Shown here in pieces: positions 47,932-64,000 of a DNA stretch of 64,000 nucleotides; positions within the stretch are counted from its first letter, which is position 1; each line of letters begins with the position of its first letter. Source of the DNA: an uncultured virus (IMG/VR IMGVR_UViG_3300023179_000084) (taxonomy: Duplodnaviria; Heunggongvirae; Uroviricota; Caudoviricetes); IMG/VR virus record IMGVR_UViG_3300023179_000084; one strand, 5' to 3'. A program made the translations under genes and the position numbers. The notes below the pieces were generated by a model. It was not told where the DNA came from. It was given only the letters and a program-made list of their open reading frames with translations, and did no database searches.

Positions 47932-48100
47932 GCGGCGGTTGATTGGTTAATAAGGCCAACCGCCAAAACCCCACTTAGCTTATGCAGCTAAGGCGTAAAC
48001 CTCATCATTTGCGTTTACTTTAGTTTGCTAGAATTACGCTCTTCGCCTAGCGAGTTGTCCACTTTAGTACTCTTCACCATGTCGAATCTAAGTCGGGCCC
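47932..48100 (-). ncRNA. ssrA: Two-piece tmRNA, coding piece (tag ANDEVYALAA* at 48012-47980)
   Basis: 5' GGGCCCGACTTAGATTCGAC; pk1-like element; tag ORF; terminal GGCGGTTG/CAACCGCC hairpin. Confidence 0.92.
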
Positions 48101-48648
48101 ATCAATAAATGTTCTAGCCTATGGCAATTTGGACATAGTAGTATACATTTATTAAGTTCTGGAATAATAGTAGAGATAAAAGTTTCTAATGAAGCCGATC
48201 TACTGACTCTGCTAATTTCAAATTCTTTATCGAAGTCATCTAGGTGATGAAAATCTAAAGATCCCGGAACATTTGTATAACTACAGTTACTACATTCATA
48301 TTTTTTATTTAAACTATTAAGATAGTCTAATATATACGAATGAAATTTGTCTTTTCTAGAAGAATTTTCGCAAGATTTGCAACTTGGTTTATATTTTATT
48401 TTACCTGTATTAGTTTTGCCATTAGAATAAAATTCTGTTAAAGGTAAATTTTTATTACAATTATTGCAAGTTTTTATACCAGATTCTCTATCTAATTTTT
48501 TAGAATTAGGAGATAAACCAACTAAACCATTTTTTCGTTTAAAATCTGTTATAGTTGTTCTACTACAACTATATATTTCTTGCAATTCTTTTATTGTTTT
48601 ACCTTGTAAAACTAATCTAGTAAATTCTTCTATGTCTATGTCTGCCAT
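48088..48648 (-). mobile_element. HNH homing-type endonuclease gene inside the tmRNA intervening segment
   Basis: CNNC/CKSC zinc finger; CSNC...LDFHH...CPNCHRLEH; RBS AGGAG. Confidence 0.85.
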
Positions 48649-61965: not shown

Positions 61966-62003
61966 ATATATATTGATTGATACACAACCCACAAGGAAAA
62001 CAA

Positions 62004-62309
62004 ATGGAAAACAAAGCACAAAACTATACACCAGAACAAACCAAAATGATTGTTGAACAGTATCAAAGTGGAACTCCTGTTGAGCAAATTGCCGAAATGC
62101 TTGGTAAAAGTACTCGTTCAATTGTAGCTAAACTTAGCCGCGAAGGTGTTTATGTGGCTAAAAGCAAACAAGCACAGCCGCGTGTTAAGAAGTCAGAGCT
62201 TGTTGAGCGTATTGCGGCCGCAGTAGGTGTTCCTAGCGAACTCTTTGAAAGTTTAGAGAAAGCTAACTTTGAGGTTCTTGAGCATCTTGCTAACAAGCTG
62301 GGTGTTTAA
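62004..62309 (+). CDS. T5 A2-like DNA-binding protein
   Basis: RSIVAKLSREGVY...KSELVERIA...ESLEKA. Confidence 0.6.
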   Translation: MENKAQNYTPEQTKMIVEQYQSGTPVEQIAEMLGKSTRSIVAKLSREGVYVAKSKQAQPRVKKSELVERIAAAVGVPSELFESLEKANFEVLEHLANKLGV

Positions 62310-63488: not shown

Positions 63489-63517
63489 TTGAACTAATAA
63501 CCTAAACACTGTATAAT
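63489..63517 (+). promoter_or_regulatory. sigma70-type promoter driving the ncRNA cluster
   Basis: TTGAAC-17-TATAAT. Confidence 0.75.
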
Positions 63518-63522
63518 ATATA

Positions 63523-63644
63523 TTATGGCTAGTGAGGAACACAAGATCCGCAAGGATTGACAGCTTTAAATGACATTTTGCCCTACCAAATAAATAATTA
63601 TTTATCCTATACAAAATGTGCATTGTAGCGACCACCTGCCATAA
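63523..63644 (+). ncRNA. Putative structured ncRNA (unknown)
   Basis: TTATGGC/GCCATAA closing stem; GATCC-GCAA-GGATT hairpin; ACATTTTG/CAAAATGT stem. Confidence 0.5.
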
Positions 63645-63648
63645 CCAA

Positions 63649-63747
63649 ATCCTCTGATGAGCTGTTGCAATACAGTGAAACCCTAAACCCACTAAGCAGT
63701 TGCTGTGTATTTCAATCTACACACCTGCTGCGGTTTAGGGTAAGGAT
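63649..63747 (+). ncRNA. Type I hammerhead ribozyme
   Basis: ATCCT-CTGATGA-GCTGT/ACAGT-GAAA-CCCTAAACC/GGTTTAGGG-TA-AGGAT. Confidence 0.88.
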
Positions 63748-63750
63748 ACA

Positions 63751-63775
63751 AGCCAGCTAAGCTGGCTATTTTTTT
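63751..63775 (+). terminator. Rho-independent terminator
   Basis: AGCCAGC-TAA-GCTGGCT followed by A and T7. Confidence 0.8.
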
Positions 63776-63779
63776 CTAG

Positions 63780-63933
63780 TAAAATAATTTTTATGGCTCT
63801 GTGCAAAATGTTTGACTAACAGCCCGACTACTAGGGTAAAACAGAATCCGTGATGTAGCCTAGTCAACTGCAACCAAGCACGGAGAGACATTAGTCTCTT
63901 AAACAGGTAGTAGTAGCCATAAAAATTATTTTA
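63780..63933 (+). ncRNA. Putative structured ncRNA closed by a 19-bp perfect inverted repeat
   Basis: TAAAATAATTTTTATGGCT / AGCCATAAAAATTATTTTA plus internal stems. Confidence 0.55.
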
Positions 63934-63934
63934 T

Positions 63935-64000
63935 CTCGGGGTAGTTCCAATTGGTAGAACACTGGTCTCCAAAACCATATGTTGGCGGTTCGAATCCGTC
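63935..64000 (+). tRNA. tRNA-Trp (CCA), truncated by the window end
   Basis: GTAGTTCCAATTGGTAGAAC...TGGTCTCCAAAACCA...GGTTCGAATCC. Confidence 0.88.

Follow-up and report, generated by a model that had tools for sequence, protein, structure and literature searches.

To judge from sequence and covariation, a small non-coding RNA gene in an uncultured phage closes with a type I hammerhead motif that has a 62-nt stem III arm. This motif likely cuts the transcript after position 63742 and thereby sets the RNA 3' end, a reading to which we assign a probability of roughly 55%. The DNA analyzed here (the window) comprises bases 1–64000 of a 73,723-base virus record with an estimated completeness of 70%. 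The gene set of this contig includes a family A polymerase, a primase, helicases, a split NAD ligase, SbcCD-like nucleases, a 5'-3' exonuclease, a dUTPase and D5-like DNA-binding proteins, and we take it, by comparison with the T5 gene order, to be T5-like. One of the D5-like genes, which served as marker gene and may also be A2-like (its PHROG matches being 323, D5-like, and 1725), lies upstream of a cluster of non-coding RNAs that holds the hammerhead. The marker protein had no match in any cultured phage of the collection, and in a DNA search for cultured-phage relatives only the tRNA-Trp matched, among the best 20 of 95 records. A strain about 97% alike was found in freshwater metatranscriptome assemblies of one study. 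The features on which the following analysis is based are:

62001..62309, + strand: D5-like DNA-binding protein gene (PHROG 323, E 4e-10; PHROG 1725, E 4e-7)
63489..63517, + strand: sigma-70-type promoter (TTGAAC, 17 nt, TATAAT, A-tract upstream), start predicted at about 63524-63525
63523..63644, + strand: RNA A, a ~120-nt three-way-junction RNA (fold z -3.55)
63649..63653, + strand: hammerhead stem I, 5' strand ATCCT, pairs retained in 35/35 subgroup sequences
63654..63660, + strand: core CUGAUGA (C3-A9), read directly, invariant in 42 sequences except for N7
63661..63676, + strand: stem II, 5 bp (63661-63665 / 63672-63676) with a 6-nt loop and a G-U at 10.1-11.1, beside the core
63677..63680, + strand: core GAAA (G12-A15.1), read directly, invariant
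63680..63741, + strand: stem III arm, 62 nt, with basal, middle and distal stems, internal loop, bulge and loop
63740..63743, + strand: GUA triplet (63740-63742) and predicted cut between 63742 and 63743, from hammerhead geometry
63743..63747, + strand: stem I, 3' strand AGGAT, from direct reading, fold and subgroup alignment
63751..63775, + strand: intrinsic-terminator-like hairpin (7 bp) and run of 7 T, retained with altered loops in 9/10 closest loci
63788..63926, + strand: RNA B, a separate structured element (fold z -3.65) with 3 homologs only, outside the conserved unit
63935..64000, + strand: tRNA-Trp (CCA), continuing to 64011 in the contig and followed by tRNA-Glu and tRNA-Thr

The position of the predicted cut follows from hammerhead geometry. 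Using the core criteria written in Perreault et al. 2011 (PMC3088659, cited here from extracts), we located all 13 core bases (C3 U4 G5 A6 N7 G8 A9, G12 A13 A14 A15, U16 H17) at 63654-63660, 63677-63680 and 63741-63742, flanked by an A-U at 1.1-2.1, a G-U wobble at 10.1-11.1 and an A-U at 15.1-16.1. By these criteria the element is a type I hammerhead on the sequence level. When folded alone, the minimum free energy (MFE) structure, the centroid and the hammerhead fold coincided (z -4.44, 0/200 shuffles), and within the 259-nt unit the hammerhead was again the MFE and centroid structure (z -4.75); the reverse strand also folded well (z -3.27), as expected for long hairpins. A hammerhead descriptor matched once in the 73.7 kb contig, while 40 Markov-resampled genomes gave 0.05 loose matches each and none equally strong. 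An earlier note, made from the letters of the window, had described a complete core and its stems at these positions and a type I hammerhead with extended stem III cutting after 63742; the core and stems agree base for base and form the MFE fold, and sequence and covariation both support the assignment to type I, the extended stem III and the predicted cut.

The same note had proposed a search with the Rfam hammerhead models, and this search did not recover the element: no hammerhead family (clan CL00010) was found at gathering score, the element scoring below every hammerhead threshold of the clan, and the best score was 15.4 bits (E 2.9) for Hammerhead_3 in the wrong register, against a threshold of 48.5 bits for RF00008. 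Presumably, the models are defeated by the long stem III. An entire family of phage hammerheads is missed by Rfam. A conserved UGNAA in loop II and, six bases ahead of the core, an invariant A hint at a tertiary contact between stem I and loop II; a Watson-Crick pseudoknot between the stem I region and loop II was sought and not found.

To define the family, we searched for relatives with the marker gene, taking the best 79 of 706 stretches as loci. The hammerhead descriptor matched 63 of the 86 loci examined (duplicates included), and several of the misses are cut-off or more distant loci. Forty-two non-redundant copies were aligned, with duplicates, three false regex matches and versions with an inserted stem II excluded. 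Across the 18 named core pairs of these homologs, 89.3% of cells were paired, compared to 76.9% after shuffling, and two-sided changes occurred in 11 of the 18 pairs; 0/500 shuffles came as high, and slid controls stayed at or below 46%; these counts rest on related sequences, and relatedness inflates the shuffle test. Within stem II, four of the five pairs showed two-sided changes and 95% of cells were paired, while stem I varied little (3 A-U for U-A and 3 C-G among 42). Two loci (L051:6705-6865 and L014:6825-6934) carry a long stem II insertion that holds the complement of a repeated motif.

An alignment-based model placed the hammerhead in 21 of 28 records, including 12 of the 14 with a completeness of 90% or more. 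Each record had a single copy, except for one record with copies at both ends and one unrelated phage with two short hammerheads. A long-form pattern matched 39 stretches in viral contigs (mostly contigs already known via the marker gene), at least 119 stretches in metagenomes (estimated total about 130) and, in prokaryote genomes, 1 short contig. The family is represented by 135 distinct hammerhead versions. As far as these records go, the element is a single-copy feature of a T5-like phage family. H17 is C in 99/135 versions and A in 36/135, the latter forming the GUA subgroup to which the present copy belongs. In 35 sequences of this subgroup, the 13 core bases and stem I were all invariant, and the 10.1-11.1 pair, as read from the alignment, was G-C in 22, G-U in 6 (present copy included) and U-U in 7; among the 42 aligned copies it was G-C in 39, such that the G-U wobble is a minority state.

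Stem III of hammerheads is usually regarded as a variable spacer. In the present copy, its basal part consists of A15.1-U16.1 plus 9 bp (63681-63689 / 63732-63740), followed by two inner stems (63695-63699 / 63725-63729 and 63704-63709 / 63718-63723) and an 8-nt pyrimidine-rich loop at the tip (63710-63717). The arm folded as a single hairpin in 42/42 aligned copies, always in the order basal stem, 5'-side loop, middle stem, bulge, distal stem and pyrimidine-rich loop. It measured 62-64 nt in 31 of these 42 copies and 61-64 nt in 114 of the 135 distinct versions, within the length range of roughly 46-80 nt that the search patterns let through. Five distal pairs were never broken in 35/35 GUA-type versions (35 of 36, L050 being omitted as a different lineage) and showed two-sided changes in 6, 10, 20, 18 and 19 sequences, respectively. 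Fixed bases were also found in the bulge and the loop. The conserved length together with the covariation at the tip argues that the long stem III is a selected domain, as stem III evidently can be, and it likely serves as a binding or docking surface as well. A pairing between loop II and the arm bulge was considered and not supported: a complement, sought anywhere in a 19-nt stretch, was present in 52/80 versions with loop base C, 15/19 with A and 0/19 with U, and such a pairing is also geometrically improbable. An ungapped column scan over the arms yielded noise.

As depicted in the feature list, the hammerhead is embedded in a short transcription unit. The same promoter style recurs elsewhere in the contig and at the equivalent place in close relatives. 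RNA A, with 26 homologs and two-sided changes in 10 of 27 pairs, ends 4 bases before the hammerhead, and the terminator stem begins at 63751, 8 nt beyond the predicted cut, just as the earlier note had it. The four-part unit of promoter, RNA A, hammerhead and terminator was retained in 9/10 closest loci (those with RNA A directly before the hammerhead), while the content downstream of the terminator varied: RNA B in the present contig and L175, tRNA-Trp directly in L190, an apparent ORF and then RNA B in L150 and L194, the same ORF start in L144, tRNA-Ser in L193 and apparent ORFs in L186 and L201 (apparent ORFs were judged by eye). The conserved unit therefore ends at the terminator.

Elsewhere in the family the module is found in other company. 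Other relatives have RNA A about 200 nt farther upstream, with another RNA in between, or have different RNAs or tRNAs in front of the hammerhead, and another conserved RNA behind it. A terminator stands behind the hammerhead in 11 of 128 distinct versions having enough flank, in three different upstream contexts; in the two contexts other than the present one (the L030 group and L152), only the terminator hairpin lies 3' of the cut. The element more often stands between two non-coding RNAs, without a terminator. In L017, L019, L036 and L068, hammerhead stem I starts at or shortly after the end of a tRNA or tRNA-like gene, so the module also follows tRNAs. L229 lacks a terminator; 5 bases separate its stem I AGGA from the start codon (ATG) of an apparent ORF, and cleavage there could therefore free a ribosome-binding site.

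Regarding the neighbouring RNAs, no Rfam family matched RNA A or RNA B, and on 14 loci Rfam matched tRNAs alone. A reading of RNA A as a Y RNA was discarded, with no Rfam match and no TROVE (Ro60) domain in 89 ORFs of the 70% complete contig, and Pistol-, twister-, SRP-, 6S- and Y-like readings of the neighbouring RNAs, made by eye, were without Rfam support. Partial TROVE-domain matches occur in 4 of 16 relatives (G004, G006, G012 and G013). RNA B precedes tRNA-Trp in L175, L150 and L194 and is cleanly absent from the nearly identical L190, between short AT-rich repeats; from this sequence pattern, it is a module gained or lost.

These observations suggest the following course of events. Host RNA polymerase would start at about 63525 and stop at about 63775, yielding a ~250-nt RNA, in which the ribozyme would fold and cleave in cis after A63742. 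The 5-bp stem I would allow the ~33-nt terminator piece to leave, and the remaining ~218-nt RNA, composed of RNA A, core and arm, would end in a long hairpin bearing a 2',3'-cyclic phosphate, an end expected to protect it from 3' exonucleases. In most relatives, the equivalent cut would part two adjacent non-coding RNAs. The chemistry, including the 2',3'-cyclic phosphate, is that described in extracts of PMC6765202, and hammerheads near phage genes cleave in vitro and in vivo according to extracts of PMC3088659. With nothing but a terminator 3' of the cut, cleavage can have a function only via the upstream RNA or via read-through; as the arm moreover remains attached to the 5' product irrespective of the upstream sequence, this product is likely the functional one. 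As the unit recurs while the DNA after the terminator varies, 3'-end formation of the upstream RNA is favoured over a role for tRNA-Trp. The earlier note had offered both, and its proposal of self-cleavage as 3' end of an upstream ~220-nt RNA is the one backed by the four-part unit of the closest loci.

The RNA-library data for this region consist of assembled contigs, which cannot show RNA ends. Contig X2 (758 bases) spans promoter, cut site and terminator and continues to the tRNA, so uncut RNA or DNA was present in that library. X1 contigs end at 63676 and X3 at 63655, and X4 has none there; these are low-depth holes in one study that carry no weight, and the libraries may contain DNA. In the near strain from an RNA library, 4/4 changes in RNA A and the hammerhead fall at unpaired positions, a weak point in favour.

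The benefit of the cut is not obvious, as the terminator already yields a protected 3' end, and this redundancy of trimming opens the possibility, which we consider somewhat unlikely, that the module owes its conservation to the fold of arm and core, acting as a structural or protein-binding domain, the cut being slow or irrelevant in the terminator-linked subgroup and a relic of the longer multi-RNA transcripts of relatives. Relaxation at 10.1-11.1, where 13/35 subgroup members are without G-C, and the GUA triplet of all subgroup members (most of the family having GUC) suggest that the fold may be kept and the cut slow. A strictly paired distal arm and a contig (X2) that crosses the predicted cut are also as this explanation would have it. 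However, no change affects the 13 core bases or stem I in any of the 35 subgroup sequences, G-U at 10.1-11.1 remains a pair and stem II covaries, all of which speaks against this explanation.

Starting from 3'-end formation by the hammerhead, a more far-reaching proposal, which we regard as unlikely, is that an undescribed class of phage RNA matures through the cut; the spent hammerhead would then act as a fixed-length, cyclic-phosphate-capped 3' arm binding a host or phage protein (e.g. as a decoy in host takeover or counter-defence) and would be fused to different upstream modules, the 250-nt gene being the minimal version.

It is very unlikely that the cut serves the downstream product instead, with read-through RNA (RNA B, tRNA-Trp, -Glu and -Thr) gaining a 5'-hydroxyl end behind a protective hairpin. 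We found no consensus promoter between the terminator and tRNA-Trp, so RNA B and the tRNAs may depend on read-through; X2 spans this interval, and in most relatives another conserved RNA comes directly after the cut. However, the closest loci differ in downstream content, and the tRNA lies 192 nt from the cut and would owe its 5' end to RNase P, which generates tRNA 5' ends. The earlier note's second suggestion, that the cut defines the 5' end of a read-through transcript running into the next ncRNA and tRNA-Trp, is weakened by the same variation and distance.

Very doubtful, too, is a regulated ribozyme, in which a phage or host protein on the fixed-length arm would switch cleavage, and hence RNA lifetime, during infection. 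The conserved arm length, bulge and loop do suggest a ligand, and a stem I this short together with a weak pair at 10.1-11.1 leaves scope for assistance, but no candidate protein was found, nothing links the state of the arm to the core fold and the MFE structure is already the active topology. Finally, a scheme in which the 5' product, carrying catalytic core and cyclic phosphate, joins RNAs starting with 5'-OH-AGGA, or is ligated or circularised, is highly improbable: type I is the sole topology in which the core and the cyclic phosphate remain on one product (extracts of PMC3088659) and the short sequence forming the stem III 3' strand recurs in the region, but there is one ribozyme per genome and so no second cut for making a circle, stem I has merely 3-5 bp, no RtcB was found in the contig or 16 relatives, and no joint at the predicted cut appeared in four RNA assemblies. 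The searches covered RtcB, RNA_ligase and T4 Rnl1 in the contig and RtcB and Rnl1 in the 16 relatives, none being found (the Rnl1 searches ran without a positive control). The contig does encode a polynucleotide kinase-like protein (PHROG match, E 3e-9, to part of the profile; L002:11176-11685, - strand) and a metallophosphoesterase (L002:3381-3938, + strand), which by their sequence could in principle process cyclic-phosphate ends.

Compared to the bacterial, phage and prophage type I hammerheads described in extracts of Perreault et al. 2011 and to Rfam clan CL00010, the present element shares the 13-base core, the three stems, the open stem I and the intergenic phage setting. It differs from the former in that stem III is a 62-nt arm conserved in length and shape, with covariation of its own, and in that it stands among non-coding RNAs, not mRNAs, and adjoins a terminator. 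Short type I hammerheads at gene ends of an unrelated phage (L001) have the same core and first stem III pairs, but are present in two copies behind protein genes, with a short stem III hairpin and no arm. The hammerheads reported in extracts of PMC10085705 are rearranged, whereas the present one has the classical order. The role proposed for phage and prophage hammerheads in extracts of PMC3088659 and PMC6765202 is the cutting of long transcripts, and the latter describes the biological function of self-cleaving ribozymes in bacteria and phages as largely open.

By analogy, the nearest functional parallel is provided by the theta ribozymes of gut phages (bioRxiv 10.1101/2023.06.13.544163, cited from extracts), self-cleaving phage RNAs near tRNA genes with a proposed role in forming the 3' end of a stable RNA; for the present element, cleavage is predicted. 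The theta ribozymes belong to the HDV-like type, with a cut at the 5' edge of the ribozyme, which is the tRNA 3' end, whereas the predicted cut of the hammerhead lies near its own 3' edge, so that the ribozyme stays on the upstream RNA, and the element lies upstream of the tRNAs. A theta or HDV-like identity was rejected, as the element has a hammerhead core and no HDV-like Rfam match and lies 192 nt upstream of the tRNA.

No description of this T5-like phage hammerhead family was found in the literature searched. In a study of 8,495 anonymous IMG/VR RNAs (PMC10690425), the word 'hammerhead' is absent from the main text, and six supplements gave no match to three contig numbers or the RNA A motif; an anonymous prior listing is possible. 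The element represents no new chemistry; the present copy adds a gene of minimal form, closed by a terminator, and evidence that the arm covaries, and at 250 nt the locus offers a compact test case.

Several further observations were made in the vicinity. Beyond the window, at contig 64.9-66.85 kb (L002:3900-5850), there is a run of promoter-led, mostly ORF-free structured stretches with no Rfam match, including two tandem copies of an element found just before the hammerhead in relatives. Within it, a degenerate tRNA-like fold ending in CCA (L002:5609-5676, contig 66.6 kb; 18.0 bits) was missed by ARAGORN, and a weak twister-sister match overlapping this fold (18.8 bits) was rejected, having no counterpart in other loci. 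Of 16 copies of the motif TTAGGGT(C/A) in the contig, 12 lie between 62.9 and 68.8 kb (window 62945 and 63735; contig 66350-68760), and two stand immediately ahead of promoter-like sites; the same sequence makes up the stem III 3' strand plus cut triplet, and the motif may be a DNA site for D5-like proteins. Lastly, a permuted (two-piece) tmRNA was matched by Rfam at window 47980-48129 on the - strand (55.6 bits, cut-off 47), with a tag frame ending in ALAA.
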